Made by a program: the position numbers and the translations under genes
Shown: positions 11,574-63,054 of the stretch, one piece after another
How the letters are laid out: each line of letters starts with the position of its first letter
How positions within the stretch are numbered: the stretch's first letter is position 1
Source: a virus
IMG/VR virus record: IMGVR_UViG_3300035182_000826
Coordinates: 97,453 to 161,452 of that record
Length of the DNA: 64,000 nt
Strand: one strand, 5' to 3'
The notes under the pieces: generated by a model
Told to the model about the DNA's origin: nothing
Databases searched by the model: none
The model's input: the letters and a program-made list of their open reading frames with translations, nothing else

Positions 11574-11601
11574 ACACGAGGGGCCCTAGGGCCCCTCGTG
11601 T
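11574..11601. repeat. 28-bp perfect palindrome (CCCTAGGG-centred); related copies at 17870-17895 and 62884-62905
   Basis: ACACGAGGGGCCCTAGGGCCCCTCGTGT. Confidence 0.9.
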
Positions 11602-11636: not shown

Positions 11637-11665
11637 CGGCCTCACCGGTGTCGCCGAGGCTGTGC
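11637..11665 (-). repeat. Solo copy of repeat module A
   Basis: Reverse complement contains GCACAGCCTCGGCGACACCGGTGAGG, identical to the copy at about 24896-24921. Confidence 0.85.
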
Positions 11666-22050: not shown

Positions 22051-22123
22051 CGCATGAATCAAAAACACCAGCGAGCGTACCCGTGACCCGTGGCGTGTTG
22101 CCGACAAAATAAGGAGAAATGAC

Positions 22124-22372
22124 GTGTCAACAGTTCTTACCTCAAGACGTCAAATCGAACCGCCAAAGCGAAAAGACGTTGAACAGCTGCTTACCATCTA
22201 TCAGTCATTGGCAGAGGCAAGAGAATTTCTCGGTATGTCAATGCCCTACAATAGCGGTCGGATCATCAGCCCAGAATTAGAGCTGTCGGCCGACGATATC
22301 AGAGCGCTACTGAGAAACTTATCTTTTGAGTTCACCTCTTTCTTTCAGGAACTGAAAGCCACTAAGGCCTGA
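22124..22372 (+). CDS. Hypothetical protein
   Basis: TAAGGAG RBS upstream. Confidence 0.6.
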   Translation: MSTVLTSRRQIEPPKRKDVEQLLTIYQSLAEAREFLGMSMPYNSGRIISPELELSADDIRALLRNLSFEFTSFFQELKATKA

Positions 22373-22772
22373 CAAGAACAGCCTCGGCACCAAAGGTCGC
22401 AGTGTAATCACTGGCGACCTTTTTCTCCACCTGGTGTATCTCTTCTCTTGATAGGCCTGAGAAGAGAATCGTGAAGCACAACGTTATCCTCTTTGCGTTG
22501 CCAAGAATCTCCGGTGTGTAAAGCCTTGAGATTCCTACCTTTGTTGACACACGTGCTTGCTTCAGTGCAGACTTGTGCTTGCTCGCCCGTGTTGCAGGCG
22601 AGCGCGTCTGCCCAATGTACCAAAACACCTGTCCATCCACATCAATGGACAGCTCATAGACTGAGTAGGTGTTATCCTGGTGTTTTGAAAAATCAGTGAT
22701 CATGTCAATCAGTACTGTGCTTAGGTAGTCCTTGTACTGATCAGCAATCTCATCTAAAGAATACGTGATCAT
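22362..22772 (-). CDS. GIY-YIG nuclease-family protein
   Basis: SVYEL...WYIGQT...R...H and a conserved E; TAAATA on the minus strand at 22798-22803. Confidence 0.65.
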   Translation of the reverse strand: MITYSLDEIADQYKDYLSTVLIDMITDFSKHQDNTYSVYELSIDVDGQVFWYIGQTRSPATRASKHKSALKQARVSTKVGISRLYTPEILGNAKRITLCFTILFSGLSREEIHQVEKKVASDYTATFGAEAVLVRP

Positions 22773-22815
22773 GTGCCGCCAATAGTTTCGCGGCAAGTAT
22801 TTATTGTACTGAAAA

Positions 22816-22887
22816 TGTAACGACCGTGTTCGGCCTGATCAGGTCGTTACACTTTCTGGTGTTCACCAGAAAAAATCATGTTATAGT
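22816..22887 (+). promoter_or_regulatory. TGTAAC...GTTACA inverted motif plus extended -10 (TGnTATAGT)
   Basis: Same arrangement recurs at 28696, 40829, 45993 and 55711. Confidence 0.65.
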
Positions 22888-22920
22888 TCCAACATCAACA
22901 AACAACGCCAAATACTAGGA

Positions 22921-23952
22921 GTGTTCAACATGGCAGTTGCTCAAGTTTCTTGGAATCCGAGTCAAGCCCGCTGGGAAGCCACCTTTGGTGGCCGAGTGAT
23001 CGCTTCGAACCGGAACTTCTCTGGTGGCGTCGACTACCTCCGTCGTGTGATCGAAGGCGGCTTCAGCCAGAAGGCCAAGAACCTCGGTATCGACAAGATC
23101 GAAGTCCTGCAAGCGTCGACTGCGCTGTCGAACGTTGTGAACGGCACGATGAACTCCGATGATGAGTTGGCTCCGGAGCCACTGCGCAGTCTGGATGATG
23201 AATTCCCGATCAACGAGCGCTTCGCGATCATGACTGACTACGTCGAGATGGTCGCTGAAAAGCAACTCGCATCAACGATCGTGACCGGTGAAGGCGGTCT
23301 CGGCAAGTCATTCACGGTGATGCGCACGCTGCGAGCCTGCGGCCTGGAAGACACCGACAAGTACCTCGGTGCCAAGGAAATCGGCTCTTCGTTCGATGGC
23401 TTCCGCGGCTACAAGGTCATCAAGGGGTACTCCACCGCGAAGGGTCTGTACCGCACGCTGTACGAGTATCGGAACCAGATCGTTGTGTTTGACGACTGTG
23501 ACTCCATCTTGAAGGATGCGAACGCGGTGAACGTGCTCAAGGCTGCCCTTGACAGCTACGATGTTCGAATCGTGTCGTGGAATGCCGAATCGATGATGGG
23601 TGATGATGACCTGCCGCGCAGCTTCGAGTTCACTGGCGGCGTGATCTTCATCTCGAACCTTCCGAAGTACAAGGTGCCGCAAGCCATTCGCTCTCGTGCC
23701 ATGTGTGCCGATGTGAGCATGTCCCGCGATGAAGTCATCGAGCGCATGCAAGTCATCATTGAGTCTGACGAGTTCATGCCGAACTTCTCGATGGAGCATA
23801 AGCGTGAAGCCCTCCAGTTCGTGTCTGATCATCGTGATGATCCGCTGATCGCTGAACTGAACCTTCGCTCGCTGGTGAACGCGGTCAAGGCCCGTGAAGC
23901 CAAGCCGGACTCGTGGGAGCGTCTCGCCCTGTACTCCATGGCGAACTCCTAA
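22921..23952 (+). CDS. AAA+ ATPase, paralogue of 9971..11539
   Basis: GEGGLGKS, VVFDDCDS, NVLKAALD, FTGGVIFISN and AIRSR motifs; GC3-rich codons. Confidence 0.85.
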   Translation: MFNMAVAQVSWNPSQARWEATFGGRVIASNRNFSGGVDYLRRVIEGGFSQKAKNLGIDKIEVLQASTALSNVVNGTMNSDDELAPEPLRSLDDEFPINERFAIMTDYVEMVAEKQLASTIVTGEGGLGKSFTVMRTLRACGLEDTDKYLGAKEIGSSFDGFRGYKVIKGYSTAKGLYRTLYEYRNQIVVFDDCDSILKDANAVNVLKAALDSYDVRIVSWNAESMMGDDDLPRSFEFTGGVIFISNLPKYKVPQAIRSRAMCADVSMSRDEVIERMQVIIESDEFMPNFSMEHKREALQFVSDHRDDPLIAELNLRSLVNAVKAREAKPDSWERLALYSMANS

Positions 23953-24033
23953 TCCCCTTATCAAACTCAAGATTTTGAAAGGTTGATCTGAACTCCTAGT
24001 GCCTGACTCCTTTGCAGTTGCCAGGCCCTCTTA

Positions 24034-24069
24034 GGCCCTACAGCGAAAGTTGTAGGGCCATTTTTTATT
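24034..24069 (+). terminator. Intrinsic terminator
   Basis: GGCCCTACAGC-GAAA-GTTGTAGGGCC followed by a T run. Confidence 0.85.
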
Positions 24070-24071
24070 CT

Positions 24072-25005
24072 GCCTCGGCGACACCGGTGAGGCCCGGCTC
24101 ACACAGGCTCGCCAAGACATATATCTTTATTGGCCACTATTTTTAAGCGCACCGGCGTCGCCTCGTGTCGCCGGCTCACGTTGAACCCGCTATTCGTCGG
24201 CTAATGCGCTCTGTGTGCGCCTCACCACTATGAACACCACCTCACTCCAATGAGAACCTGAAGAACTGGTCACCTCGCTCCAATGAAGAACTTGTTGGAG
24301 AATCCGTTGAACCCGCTATCTGTCGGCTAATGCGCTCTATGGGCGCTCACGCCTCACTTAAACTTTTTGCTAATGATAATGTCAGCTCTTGAAGGTCCTT
24401 GACCGTGTCATAGAACCCATTGAACCCGCTATTCGTCGGCTAATGCGCTCTATGAGCGCACTGTGCACCTCACACAAAGAGCCCCTTCTAATTTGGCGCC
24501 TTTCTTAAGTGCAGTTCGCCATAAGCGATAGAGCACCACCTCGGCGACACCGGTGAGGTCCGGCTCACACCGGACCTCACCACCAATAAGTTATGCACAG
24601 CACTTGGCCGGTGTGAGCCGGCGTCGCCTCGTGTCGCCGGCTCACGTTGAACCCGCTATTCGTCGGCTAATGCGCTCTGTGTACGCACACTGTGAGCGAC
24701 TATGACCAATGAAAACTGATCACCTGCTCCAATGAAGAACTTGTTGGAGAACTTGTTGGAGAACTTGTTGGAGAGCCCATTGAACCTGCTATTCGTCGGC
24801 TAATGCGCTCTGTGTGCGCCTCACCACTAAGAACACTCTTCTAATTTGACACTTTCTTAAGTGCGGCACAAATGGCAGTTCGCCATAAGCAATGAGCACA
24901 GCCTCGGCGACACCGGTGAGGTCCGGTGTGAGCCGGACCTCACCGCCAATAAGTTATGCACAGCACTTGGCCGGTGTGAGCCGGCGTCGCCTCGTGTCGC
25001 CGAGG
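24072..25005 (+). repeat. Non-coding modular repeat cluster 1 (modules A-E; five copies of 32-bp repeat C)
   Basis: TTGAACCCGCTATTCGTCGGCTAATGCGCTCT (0-2 mismatches) at 24181, 24307, 24420, 24647 and 24780; CCTCGGCGACACCGGTGAGG at 24073, 24539 and 24902; CCGGCGTCGCCTCGTGTCGCCG three times; GAACTTGTTGGA x3; no ORF of 60 aa or more. Confidence 0.95.
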
Positions 25006-25053
25006 GTGACAGGCGTCAATAGAAGATAAATAGCCAATCATTATGGAGTTCAT

Positions 25054-25701
25054 ATGAAAGTCAAAGATCTATTACAAGAGCTCATTGGCATCAAGAAGTA
25101 CCAAGGCGTTGACTTGCTGCAGCTTCTCATGAAGCTCCAAAGTGAAAAGAAGATCAACGTGAAGAATGGGTCTTTCAGTGTCGTAATCATTCCTGAGAAT
25201 GAAGACTTTGTGTACAGAGTGTGGACACAGGATGGTGGTTGGTTAGATTATATGGAGTACTGCATTGACCACCAAGACAATCCACACATCTTGAAAATCA
25301 AGAGTCGTGCGAAGAAGATTCCATTCATTTTTCAGAGACCTGAGGGGTTTGAGACAACACTGTATGTTGTCAAGACTGAGAAACTACAACCTTTGATTTC
25401 CAACATTGATCTGTTTGATCAGGTCAGAGTGTTCAGTAATATCGTGCAAAGAGATTTTCCAACATATGCGATTGTGAATAAGAGAATCAAAGAGCAAACT
25501 GGAATCAAGACTGATTTTGATAAGAGCTTCTATGACACGGTCAAGGACCTTCAAGAGCACTCACCCTTTCTACTTGACATCTCAACTTCGAATGTGATGC
25601 TGCGTGGAACTACTCTGGTTCTCTCTGATCCAATTGCAGAAGTCGGAACTAAGGAATTCAAAACAGCTGCTGACATTATCATTAGCAAAAAGTTTAAGTG
25701 A
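25054..25701 (+). CDS. Protein-kinase-like protein (reminiscent of T7 gp0.7 kinase domain)
   Basis: NGSFSVV Gly-loop, NPHILKI, YVVKTEKL, LDISTSNVM catalytic loop, LSDP; TAAATA at 25027-25032. Confidence 0.6.
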   Translation: MKVKDLLQELIGIKKYQGVDLLQLLMKLQSEKKINVKNGSFSVVIIPENEDFVYRVWTQDGGWLDYMEYCIDHQDNPHILKIKSRAKKIPFIFQRPEGFETTLYVVKTEKLQPLISNIDLFDQVRVFSNIVQRDFPTYAIVNKRIKEQTGIKTDFDKSFYDTVKDLQEHSPFLLDISTSNVMLRGTTLVLSDPIAEVGTKEFKTAADIIISKKFK

Positions 25702-25747
25702 GGTGTGAGCGCCCGTTATACGCATTAGCCGACGAATAGCAGGTTCA
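25702..25747 (-). repeat. Solo inverted copy of repeat C directly after the kinase stop codon
   Basis: 25721-25747 is the exact reverse complement of 24781-24807. Confidence 0.9.
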
Positions 25748-25819
25748 CGATTTAACCCAAAAAGGGTTTTAGCAAATAAACCCATTAAGTTACATTTTCT
25801 GTACTTCTAAGGTCAGAAA

Positions 25820-27082
25820 ATGGAAAGAAAACTAGTAACAGTTAGACCGATCAGCGCGCTTCTGCCAATCCCTGGGGCTGATGCAATTGAAACTGCTGTC
25901 ATTGACGGGTGGACAGTGGTTGTGAAGAAGGGTGAATTTCAAGTAAATGACCTGTGTGTTTACTTTGAGATTGACAGCTTCCTTCCAGACGGCAACCCAG
26001 CATGGCAATTCTTGGTTGACAAACAGAGTCAAGAATTTGAGGGTGTCAGAGGACATCGACTACGCACCATTCGGCTTCGCAAGCAGTTGAGCCAAGGGCT
26101 GGCTCTGCCGCTTAGCGCGTTTCCACAAATTAAAGACTCTGTTCCGAAGTCGTTTGATGTTAAACCTGGCGCGATTCACCAGGTTTATGGTGAATATCTG
26201 TCTGACACGGACTTCGCTCCACTTCTAGATGTCAAGAAGTGGGAAGCTACTCTGCCAGCACAGCTAGCTGGCCAAGCTGAAGGTCTGTTCCCGTCATTCA
26301 TCGTGAAGACTGATCAAGAGCGCTGCCAAAACCTCTGTCGTCAAATCTTCGGTTATGATCCACAAGTTGTGCCGGTTGATTCTTCAAATATCCCCCAAGA
26401 CGAGATTGATCGACTGCTGAGCACTGGCGAGTTCGTGAAGAATGAGGATGGTAGCATTTCAAAATTGCTGCCAGCGCAAGCGTCGCGTAATGATTGGTAT
26501 GAAGTCACAATCAAGCTTGATGGTTCCTCAATGACTGTCTTCAATGATGGTGGGTACTATGTGAATGAAGACGGCACAGATCATGTTGGTGTCTGCAGTC
26601 GCAATCTAGAGCTCAAGGACAACGAAGAGAACGCCCAGAACGCGTTCGTGAAGATGTTCAATGAGAGCGGCCTGAAGGACGCGCTGAAGAAGACTGGACT
26701 TGCAGTCGCCGTTCAAGGTGAGCTGATGGGCCCGAACATTCAAGGCAATCGTGAAAACCTGAAGGTGCATCAGTTCTTCGTGTTTAACATTCAAGCGCTT
26801 GCGCCAGATGTTCAGCAATTCCTGCCTCCACTGCAGCGTCTTGCAGTGCTTGAAAAGCTCTACGACGCTGGTGTGTCAAGAGAGTTGGTCATGCATGCTC
26901 CGATCCTCTTCTCCAATACCACTCTTGAGGCCCTTGGCATTGAAGATATCCAATCGCTCTTGGACTTCGCGAATGGTCCTTCACTGAACAATCCTGTTCG
27001 CGAAGGCCTGGTTTTCAAGCGGCATGACGGGCTGTTCAGCTTCAAGGCCATCAGCAATCATTACCTGCTGCAGGAGAAGTGA
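25820..27082 (+). CDS. RNA ligase, DRB0094 family
   Basis: RKLVTVR.I....PIPGADAIE, VYFEIDS, KTDQER, motif I KLDGSS, QGEL, EGLVFK and SFKAISN. Confidence 0.9.
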   Translation: MERKLVTVRPISALLPIPGADAIETAVIDGWTVVVKKGEFQVNDLCVYFEIDSFLPDGNPAWQFLVDKQSQEFEGVRGHRLRTIRLRKQLSQGLALPLSAFPQIKDSVPKSFDVKPGAIHQVYGEYLSDTDFAPLLDVKKWEATLPAQLAGQAEGLFPSFIVKTDQERCQNLCRQIFGYDPQVVPVDSSNIPQDEIDRLLSTGEFVKNEDGSISKLLPAQASRNDWYEVTIKLDGSSMTVFNDGGYYVNEDGTDHVGVCSRNLELKDNEENAQNAFVKMFNESGLKDALKKTGLAVAVQGELMGPNIQGNRENLKVHQFFVFNIQALAPDVQQFLPPLQRLAVLEKLYDAGVSRELVMHAPILFSNTTLEALGIEDIQSLLDFANGPSLNNPVREGLVFKRHDGLFSFKAISNHYLLQEK

Positions 27083-35735: not shown

Positions 35736-35763
35736 GCCTCGGCGACACGAGGCGACACCGGTG
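35736..35763. repeat. Solo hybrid of repeat modules B and A
   Basis: GCCTCGGCGACACGAGGCGACACCGGTG; CCTCGGCGACACGAGGCGAC is the reverse complement of 24986-25005. Confidence 0.8.
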
Positions 35764-48348: not shown

Positions 48349-49467
48349 GTGTTTATGGTTTTCTTAACTTTCTTTTCAGCCTTCCTAATCGAAGGTCTTG
48401 GAACTGTAATTTCAGTTCTAGGAGCAATGGCTCTGTTTGGTGTGAACCCTATAATCACATCACTATTCGTTGGCCTTGACATTTGTAAGATGGTGGTGCT
48501 ATCGCTGCTTTACAAAAACTGGATTGGCTTCAATGGAATCATGAAGAGCTATGGGGTGATTGCAACCGTCATCATGATGACAATCACTAGTGCTGGCGCA
48601 GCTGGATACCTTACAGGCGCCTTTCAAACTGCCATCTTAGGGTCTCAAGAGGGATCACTTAAGGTCAGCACTCTCAAAGAGCAGCAAGCAAAGTATGAGG
48701 AACGAAAGAAGCAGATCGACGAACAGATTGCATCGCTTCCAGAAAAAACCTCTGTGAATCAGCGCATTCGAATGATGAACGCGTTCAAGACCGAGCAGGC
48801 TGACCTTCAATCCAAAATCAATGACATTGACAAAGAGCTGCCAGCACTACAGGTGAAACAGCTTGGGGTTGAAGCAAAGGCCGGGCCAATCTTATACTTG
48901 GCAAAGGCATTCAACATTAGTGTTGAAGAAGCCATCAAATACGTGATCATGATGATCATTGTTGTGTTTGACCCGCTTGCGGTGTACCTTGTGCTGGCTG
49001 GGAACTATCTCCTAGCTCAACGGAAGGTCGCCTCGGCGACGCCGGTGGAGCCGGTTGCACCACAGGTGACTGAGCCAACAGAACCTATTGAGACTGTTAA
49101 ACAGAGTGAGCACGTGTCACCTCGTGTCGCCGAGGCTGTTGCTCTTCCTGAGCCAGTTCCTGAGCCAGTTCCTGAGGTAGAACCTGAGGTCGTTCCTGAG
49201 CCAGTTCCTGAGGTCGTTCCTGAGGTCGTTCCTGAGGTCGTTCCTGAGGTCGTTCCTGAGGTCGTTCCTGAGGTAGAACTTGAACAGCCAGCGCAATCTG
49301 TTCAGCGCCCAGCATATGACTTGATTACCAAGGACATGCTTCTTGGGAAAAAGCGCCAGTCATCAAGCGAGTTTAGGTCCTCATTGAATGATGTTCAAGC
49401 TGACGCTTTGACACAAACTGATGGTGATCGCGCCGGCGTGAACCTAAATCTTTACACTGGTCAATAA
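48349..49467 (+). CDS. Membrane-anchored coiled-coil protein with Pro-Glu-Val repeat tail
   Basis: Three N-terminal TM segments, coiled coil, GP..YLA, IIVVFDPLAV.L, PEVV repeats. Confidence 0.75.
   Translation: MFMVFLTFFSAFLIEGLGTVISVLGAMALFGVNPIITSLFVGLDICKMVVLSLLYKNWIGFNGIMKSYGVIATVIMMTITSAGAAGYLTGAFQTAILGSQEGSLKVSTLKEQQAKYEERKKQIDEQIASLPEKTSVNQRIRMMNAFKTEQADLQSKINDIDKELPALQVKQLGVEAKAGPILYLAKAFNISVEEAIKYVIMMIIVVFDPLAVYLVLAGNYLLAQRKVASATPVEPVAPQVTEPTEPIETVKQSEHVSPRVAEAVALPEPVPEPVPEVEPEVVPEPVPEVVPEVVPEVVPEVVPEVVPEVELEQPAQSVQRPAYDLITKDMLLGKKRQSSSEFRSSLNDVQADALTQTDGDRAGVNLNLYTGQ
49146..49277 (+). repeat. In-frame 12-bp tandem repeat (CCTGAGGTCGTT and variants), about 11 units
   Basis: Encodes PEPV/PEVE/PEVV. 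Confidence 0.9.
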
Positions 49468-58726: not shown

Positions 58727-59216
58727 GCACAGCCTCGGCGACACCGGTGAGGTCCGGCTCACTTCGAATTTAAGAGGCGTTAAGATATACACCAGGGCTC
58801 TTTCGTGAGCCCTGGGGCGTTTTAGGTGACACGAGAAAAGAATAGGTCCTCTTAGGTGCAGCGCGCACAGAGCGCATTAGCCGACAGATAGCGGGTTCAA
58901 TTGGTTCTTCAACAAGTTCTTCATTTGGAGAGAGTGGCCAGTTGCTCACACAGCGCGTGCCCATAGAGCGCATTAGCCGACAGATAGCGGGTTCAACATC
59001 ATCCGGCGACACGAGGCGACGCCGGCTCACACCGGCCAAGTGCTGTGCATAACTTATTGGCGGTGAGGTCCGGTGTGAGCCGGGCCTCACCGGTGTCGCC
59101 GAGGCTGTGCTCTATCGCTTATGGCGAACTGCACTTAAGAAAAGGCGTCAAATTAGAAGGTGGCCATTGTTACTCACAGTGCGTGCCCACAGAGCGCATT
59201 AGCCGACGAATAGCGG
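58727..59216 (-). repeat. Non-coding modular repeat cluster 2 (mostly an inverted copy of cluster 1 modules)
   Basis: Reverse-complement repeat C at 58869-58900, 58965-58996 and 59191-59216 (partial); modules B, A and E at about 59003-59159; forward module A at 58727-58762. Confidence 0.95.
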
Positions 59217-59279
59217 AAACATGTAAGTCTATCGTGTCAGAAAATAAATACCGTTGAAGTAGTTCGAAAGTAGGACGAT

Positions 59280-62767: not shown

Positions 62768-63054
62768 AATGTCTCCTTTGCAGGCATAAGTGAACTATTT
62801 ATCTAAACAGACTATAAGGACGAGGAAAGACCCATGCCAGATCAATCCCAAATTACTCAGTCGCAGTTGTATGTCTCAATGTACGAGGGGCCCTAGGGCC
62901 CCTCGGAGGCGTCTGGTGTCGCCGACAATAGTGCTTTAGGACCACTGTTATACTGCCACCGTTCGTATAACCCGACAATGGGTTAGGTTGAAAAGGCGTA
63001 AAAACCTAAAATGAAGCTGAAAGACCAGCTGCCTTCGGAGTACTGACATGATTT

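Follow-up and report, generated by a model that had tools for sequence, protein, structure and literature searches.

A palindrome with two core orientations in a repeat family of an uncultured jumbo phage

The genome fragment and its repeat arrays

The window is the whole stretch of DNA analysed here. It comprises 64,000 nucleotides, bases 97453-161452 of a linear IMG/VR record of 161,452 bp with a CheckV completeness of 45%. The record encodes a tail sheath with 57% identity to that of the Ralstonia jumbo phage RsoM2USA, a tail tube, a large terminase and a DnaB-type helicase. Ribonucleotide reductase, DNA ligase and RNA ligase are also encoded. Given this gene content, the record is a fragment of the genome of an uncultured jumbo myophage. 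A tRNA search returned none.

In the window, the intrinsic terminator of an upstream phrog_1250 gene (24034-24069, + strand) is directly followed by an array of repeats that contains no ORFs. Modules of about 104 nt are interleaved in such arrays with short tandem repeats and with copies of a 30-nt repeat called boxA, which occurs 28 times in the record. Five boxA copies (GAACCCGCTATTCGTCGGCTAATGCGCTCT) alternate with modules on the + strand between 24183 and 24811, starting at 24183, 24309, 24422, 24649 and 24782. Three more lie on the - strand in an inverted cluster, E, at 58869-59220 (starts 58869, 58965 and 59191). Rfam gave sub-threshold matches only, namely SdsR_RyeB, with 27 bits against a gathering score of 38 and lying over the terminator, and mir-9198.

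Variants of boxA are also found. One with the end GCGTATA in place of GCGCTCT lies at window 25717-25746 (- strand) and at G000:C1:8705-8734; the window copy is inverted, just past a gene for a 215-aa protein, and Logan contigs of two runs break nearby. Tandem expansions occur immediately upstream of boxA at G000:C1:92890-93010, at G000:C1:24035-24120 and at window 24737-24772. Their units are about 14 copies of the 9-nt ATTGAATCC, six copies of a 13-nt repeat and three copies of the 12-nt GAACTTGTTGGA, and they resemble products of slippage in the 5' part of boxA.

At least 12 full copies of the module, plus half-units, are present in the 161-kb record. The full copies are located in five ORF-less arrays, at genome 22.6-24.5, 50.1-50.5, 92.4-93.6, 121.5-122.5 (the one studied here) and 156.2-156.7 kb; a single copy stands alone at 69.5 kb. 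Arrays A and D run in the direction of their flanking genes, C and E run opposite to them, and B lies between convergent genes. This independence from gene direction argues against a simple promoter role.

The module is GC-rich, intergenic and quasi-palindromic. It begins with CCTCGGCGACAC and CGGTGAGGT, followed by a segment X (CCGGCTCACACCGG) and a 34-nt centre that contains CAATAAGTTATGCA. After the centre come X' (CCGGTGTGAGCCGG), CGTCGCCTC and GTGTCGCCG(G/AGG). The left arm and the reverse-complemented right arm are variants of each other, which makes the whole module a quasi-palindrome. Within it, a smaller palindrome forms the inner hairpin of the left arm, so that this palindrome is not a free-standing element.

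Four copies lie in the window. Copy c12 (24539-24640, + strand) is full and consists of CCTCGGCGACAC, CGGTGAGGT, X (CCGGCTCACACCGG), the 34-nt centre, X' (CCGGTGTGAGCCGG) and CGTCGCCTCGTGTCGCCGG. Copy c13 (24902-25005, + strand) is also full, with a perfect 12-bp outer stem (CCTCGGCGACAC / GTGTCGCCGAGG), as is c14 (59003-59104, - strand). Copy c11 (24073-24174, + strand) is diverged. Its left arm carries CTCACA, the right palindrome arm is missing, and its centre is diverged and apparently inverted.

Two orientations of the palindrome core

The palindrome of c12 (24552-24581, + strand) has 12-nt arms and reads GGTGAGGTCCGG-CTCACA-CCGGACCTCACC, a state called flop. The palindrome of c13 (24914-24945, + strand) has 13-nt arms and reads CGGTGAGGTCCGG-TGTGAG-CCGGACCTCACCG, with the reverse-complemented core; this state is called flip. 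The two sites are mutual reverse complements over 31 nt (100%), and both lie within direct repeats of 109 nt that are 92% identical. At 59061-59092 the + strand reads CGGTGAGGTCCGG-TGTGAG-CCGGGCCTCACCG; because the c14 module lies on the - strand, this copy has CTCACA in the frame of its module, with a single arm mismatch. The original prediction had read all three cores in this way, and the sequence confirms it.

With the 6-nt core left free, the arm pattern has three occurrences in the window and none in 100 shuffles. All six core positions have changed in an exact reverse-complement manner, so independent substitutions fail as an explanation. The palindrome and its core flip are real, beyond chance. 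When the whole record was surveyed for perfect inverted repeats whose flanks are homologous and whose spacers are flipped, this palindrome was the sole case.

The core orientation changes what the module can pair with. In c12, the X' 14-mer (24608-24621, + strand) is the exact complement of 24560-24573, as had been claimed. In c13, the corresponding 14-mer (24971-24984, + strand) has become, after the flip, a direct rather than an inverted repeat of 24923-24936. As single-stranded DNA, the CTCACA module is predicted to form a long rod through X/X' pairing (-36.2 kcal/mol, z = -6.9). For the TGTGAG module the prediction is a three-way junction that the 12-bp outer stem closes (-38.6 kcal/mol, z = -6.6), one branch of which is the local hairpin with 13 arm pairs and a T-G pair. 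Predicted RNA folds agree with those of DNA, at -62.3 kcal/mol for CTCACA and -67.3 kcal/mol for TGTGAG. The folds of both forms thus bear out the claim that the flip abolishes the alternative 14-bp pairing: the CTCACA form favours it and the TGTGAG form is unable to make it.

Flipped cores are found in two of the 12 paralogues, c13 and c2 (genome 22958), with no consistent place within the arrays; the other ten are flop. These two are among the least alike copies of the family, matching at 51/70 positions of the leader and 27/34 of the centre. The nearest relative of each is unflipped: c9 for c2 (leader 65/70, centre 31/34) and c14 for c13 (centre 34/34). At present c2 has no 12-nt right arm, and its core is flanked by CCGG arms of 4 bp only.

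A second inversion is nested with the first. Here it is the 34-nt centre, flanked by the 14-nt X/X' arms, that is inverted: in c7, in c10 and, as it seems, in the diverged c11. The centres of c7 and c10 match those of other copies at 25-32 of 34 positions when reverse-complemented and at 4-8 of 34 in the forward sense. The closest forward centre is that of c8 for c7 (32/34) and that of c4 for c10 (31/34). Since the two are nearest to different forward copies, the comparison suggests that they arose by separate events; the margins are small.

The arms vary as well. The right palindrome arm is found in five copies only (c3, c5, c12, c13 and c14) and is absent in seven of 12 (c2, c4, c7, c8, c9, c10 and c11). 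It exactly complements the left flank over 12 nt in c12, 13 nt in c13 and c14, and 15 nt in c5; in c3 there are two arm mismatches. Copies without the arm have ACAGTGCGG or ACAGTTCAG at this place, compared with ACCTCACC(G)(GT), which is a clustered multi-base difference. X' perfectly complements X in seven copies and imperfectly in c4, c8 and c9, its variants being CGAGG.. and CCGGT... The leaders, centres and tails of the family are mosaic, which points to exchange between module copies.

The sequence of the neighbouring 215-aa protein was used in an exact-match search for near-identical genomes, which returned contigs of three other samples with 99.4-99.8% identity to the window. At the c13 orthologue, 139 nt upstream of the gene start, the core is TGTGAG in the window and in contig L026 (sample 3300037010), and CTCACA in contigs L025 (3300035180) and L027 (3300035181). 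A fixed orientation in relatives, which the original prediction had named as evidence against itself, is therefore not what is found, as two c13 orthologues are flip and two are flop. The c12 and c11 orthologues have CTCACA in all contigs that cover them. Further look-ups gave no additional c13 sequences, and at cluster E the contigs of other samples end before reaching the palindrome at 59061-59092.

Over 22350-26230, three SNPs and the 6-nt flip are the only differences between the window and L025. A C>T difference at 24905, in the outer stem, is common to the flop contigs, so that in these four sequences each core state is linked to one SNP. This linkage, together with only three other SNPs, fits one recent event at c13. 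In the simplest history, the core flipped once, recently, on one branch, and the other branch acquired one SNP. With only four sequences, a stable allele would fit as well as a frequent switch.

Some further differences between the contigs can be noted. Positions 1-90 of L026 join sequence like window 24265-24350 straight to about 24645 (24600-24690 was also compared); either the c12 unit is absent, through a deletion between boxA repeats, or the assembly has collapsed. Window 22061-22340, upstream of the phrog_1250 gene, differs from L025 by 15 substitutions and a 2-nt gap clustered in 280 nt of otherwise near-identical genomes, and is a local hypervariable or exchanged patch. A contig of 7.4 kb (L021, IMGVR_UViG_3300035180_000442) is the same as window ~35.6-35.9 kb around an arm motif that is found there. 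It follows that at least four JGI/SRA samples contain this phage (3300035180, 3300035181, 3300037010, SRR11727985, SRR11723144).

Possible origins of the inversions

The core flip is probably the result of recurrent template-switch inversion of the spacer, accompanied by homogenisation of the arms, at inverted repeats. This is a known type of mutation, and both arm homogenisation and spacer inversion by polymerase template switching at inverted repeats have been documented (PMC8604942; also PMC5453318, PMC8794818). During replication, the nascent strand would switch template across the perfect arms of 12-15 nt and then switch back. The loop would be copied as its reverse complement, with arms and flanks left unaltered. 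The process would have acted repeatedly on the module family, flipping the core in two unrelated copies, inverting the X/X'-flanked 34-nt centre in others, and homogenising and extending the arms in the same error-prone way. The flip at 24914 would then be a recent polymorphism among co-occurring near-identical phage genomes. We infer both this mechanism and the lack of a programmed function.

Several observations support template switching, which the original prediction had named as a possible source of the flip. The spacer is an exact reverse complement, the arms and flanks are unchanged, the arms are homogenised, and the inversion breakpoints coincide with the ends of the perfect inverted arms. 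The criterion taken from PMC8604942 is a short spacer between perfect arms of at least about 9 bp; here a 6-nt spacer is flanked by arms of 12, 13 or 15 nt, and the 34-nt spacer by arms of 14 nt. Inversions recur on different backgrounds, as in c2 and c13 or in c7 and c10, and the orthologous c13 site is polymorphic.

Some points count against template switching. The present CCGG arms of c2, at 4 bp, are short for it and an exception to the arm-length criterion; since the module family is mosaic, c2 may rather be a product of recombination among its members. In addition, at least four inversions in a family of 12 copies is a high density.

The closest known process is quasi-palindrome mutagenesis (Ripley 1982 model; PMC8604942, PMC5453318, PMC8794818). 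It shares with the present case perfect arms of more than 9 bp, a spacer turned into its exact reverse complement, clustered multi-base changes that perfect the arms, recurrence and reversibility. Unlike known cases, the phage repeats combine two nested scales (6 nt and 34 nt) in a multicopy non-coding element, with differences both between paralogues and between near-identical genomes; the mechanism here is inferred.

A second parallel comes from plastids, in whose non-coding DNA minute hairpin-loop inversions were reportedly described by Kelchner & Wendel (1996) and Kim & Lee (2005). These inversions also involve small loops on perfect stems in non-coding spacers, with recurrent, homoplasious flips. 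They differ in replicon and replication machinery, and the phage hairpin belongs to a larger repeat in which other pairings compete.

An unlikely alternative to template switching within one molecule is ectopic short-patch gene conversion. In this case an oppositely oriented module would pair through the palindromic arms and donate its core or centre reversed, the exchange being performed by the phage machinery for recombination-dependent replication. Modules are indeed present in both genomic orientations, with clusters C and E inverted relative to A and D, and the mosaic leaders, centres and tails are a sign of exchange between copies. T4-type phages are known to recombine on short patches of homology (PMC2839356). 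However, the homology available on each side would be no more than 12-14 bp, and gene conversion leaves unexplained why arms have been extended to exact complements of their local left flank (12, 13 and 15 nt). Its outcome cannot be told apart from that of intramolecular template switching.

The original prediction also proposed a two-state structural switch. In the form that needs no recombinase, the states would be heritable, and selection would keep the rod and three-way-junction isomers for differing functions, for example in protein binding, termination or initiation. The structural part of this proposal stands: the predicted minimum-energy fold changes from rod to three-way junction at similar stability, and both states coexist among near-identical phages of related samples. 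Against the functional part, no function is known for either form. It also counts against it that flipped copies occupy no particular place in the arrays, that flop is the state of 10 of 12 paralogues, and that the flip, like a stable allele, is linked to a SNP. Selection for two isomers is improbable. If the isomers did differ in function, the module would be a very small enzyme-free genetic switch; nothing here shows such a difference.

If anything still less probable is a conserved cis-element whose activity depends on its fold, both isomers of which would be kept in the population because the core and the 34-nt centre often flip without any enzyme. Were this so, the module would be a recombinase-free phase-variation device in a virus. 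Active or frequent switching within a population may nevertheless take place.

That the core is a site for a tyrosine recombinase, protelomerase or HUH nuclease, as first proposed, is highly improbable. The geometry resembles that of dif, lox (loxP) and FRT, in which arms likewise surround an asymmetric 6-bp spacer, the inverted arms here being 12/13 nt long. Unlike those sites, the palindrome has arms that are not conserved across copies, with the right one missing in 7 of 12 and c2 flipped with nothing but CCGG. The nested inversion of 34 nt lies between other arms, the 14-nt X/X', and a site-specific enzyme would leave this unexplained. Such recombinases and nucleases exchange flanks and do not flip a spacer in place, and a 6-bp spacer between 12-bp arms should not be invertible by duplex recombination between its own arms. 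No exchange of flanks is seen: the DNA between oppositely oriented sites is collinear with other arrays, and the assemblies contain collinear arrangements only.

Genes for such enzymes, a search for which had been proposed as a check, are also absent from the available DNA. Profiles for Phage_integrase (PF00589), Resolvase, Y1_Tnp (PF01797) and ResT/TelK (PF16684) had no match in the 161-kb record, which is about 45% complete. The integrase, resolvase and Y1_Tnp searches did find matches in many genomes used as controls. More than half of the genome is missing and could encode a recombinase or nuclease, so the null search is weak on its own. The missing arms, the armless c2, the separate arms of the second inversion and the collinearity weigh more against a recombinase than the gene search does.

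Hairpins with two isomers are also known from the termini of parvovirus and poxvirus genomes, where a hairpin segment is likewise reverse-complemented. Those hairpins are terminal and arise by hairpin transfer. By contrast, the module hairpins are internal, at five loci or more, and no Rep-type nickase was found in the record. In a comparison with REP/BIME-RAYT systems, the Y1 HUH transposase (PF01797) is absent from the incomplete (~45%) record.

An assembly or library artefact at the palindrome is scarcely credible: the region is repetitive and contigs of other samples break within the arrays, but two independent assemblies lie behind each state, and any k-mer of at least 21 that extends from the flank through the arm into the core tells the states apart, so that a flipped assembly should require reads that carry the flip.

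The role of the module and the meaning of the flip

Promoter/terminator cassettes called PeSL, found in T4-type phages (PMC2839356, PMC4122927), resemble the module in several ways. They too are multicopy, intergenic, mosaic and recombinogenic, contain a stable GC-rich stem-loop and belong to large myophages. They differ in that the module has no sigma-70 consensus promoter and no T-run after its stem, that its ORF-less arrays do not flank ORFans, and that its orientation is not tied to gene direction. The module stems have strong predicted folds (z about -7). A scan of 23800-25200 for sigma-70 promoters gave one promoter-like match, on the - strand, against 0.6 expected. A promoter or terminator function of the palindrome finds little support, as a consensus promoter and a following T-run are both lacking. 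A reading of CTCACA-17-TAAGTT as a promoter was rejected, with only 7 of 12 positions matching.

Half-units that consist of a single arm provide a different clue. Each has a gene end on one side and an intrinsic terminator on the other; in the window they are found at 11640, 35737 and 58733, and elsewhere in the genome at 8591 and 22639. A stand-alone left-arm half-unit at 58733-58762 (+ strand) lies just past a gene end and is followed by a terminator-like hairpin. Another, at 11640-11659 (- strand), adjoins a palindromic terminator at 11580-11595. An arm of a further type, called R' (CCTCGGCGACACGAGGCGACACCGG), stands alone at 35737-35761 (+ strand), between a gene end and a terminator. R'-type arms (CTCGGCGACACGAGGYGAC) contain two GTCGCC hexamers spaced 10 bp apart (GTCGCC-N4-GTCGCC).

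Similar terminators recur next to such arms. A palindromic terminator core, GGGGCCCTAGGGCCCC, is common to 11580-11595 and 62887-62902, both beside arm half-units, and a near-identical core (GAGGGCCCCTAGGGGCCCTC) follows the arm motif in a related phage record of 343 kb (L023). At window 49031-49135 there is a module-like inverted pair, CCTCGGCGACGCCGGTGGAGCCGG ... GTGTCACCTCGTGTCGCCGAGG, of about 100 nt end to end. As it lies inside a 372-aa ORF (48349-49467), the arm motif also occurs in coding sequence.

The R'-type arm is the only part of the module found in related jumbo phages. It is present in IMG/VR records of 331,776 and 342,591 bp, in both cases likewise near gene ends and terminators. 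Exact-pattern scans for the palindrome and module gave no match in viral_contigs, metagenome_contigs or genome_contigs, and one more scan of viral_contigs gave chance matches only, in high-GC coding DNA. Megablast against phages found no match either. Modules were not found in distant loci of 43-60% amino-acid identity, fetched via RNA ligase and a giant virion gene, nor was the boxA core found in five related records.

Since the R'-type arm alone is found outside this phage, and the palindrome and full module in none of the collections searched, the module can be read as a lineage-specific elaboration of what may be an older protein-binding or structured half-site. The module is probably a protein-bound or structured cis-element; in this phage as in its relatives, the conserved half-site is placed between gene ends and terminators.

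The family also carries a warning. A palindrome with the layout arms-spacer-arms and a flipped core need not be a recombinase site. If template switching is the cause, the modules would provide a clean natural example of this kind of mutagenesis at two nested scales in one repeat family. They would show how repeats can gain longer perfect hairpins, and a new fold, without point mutations.
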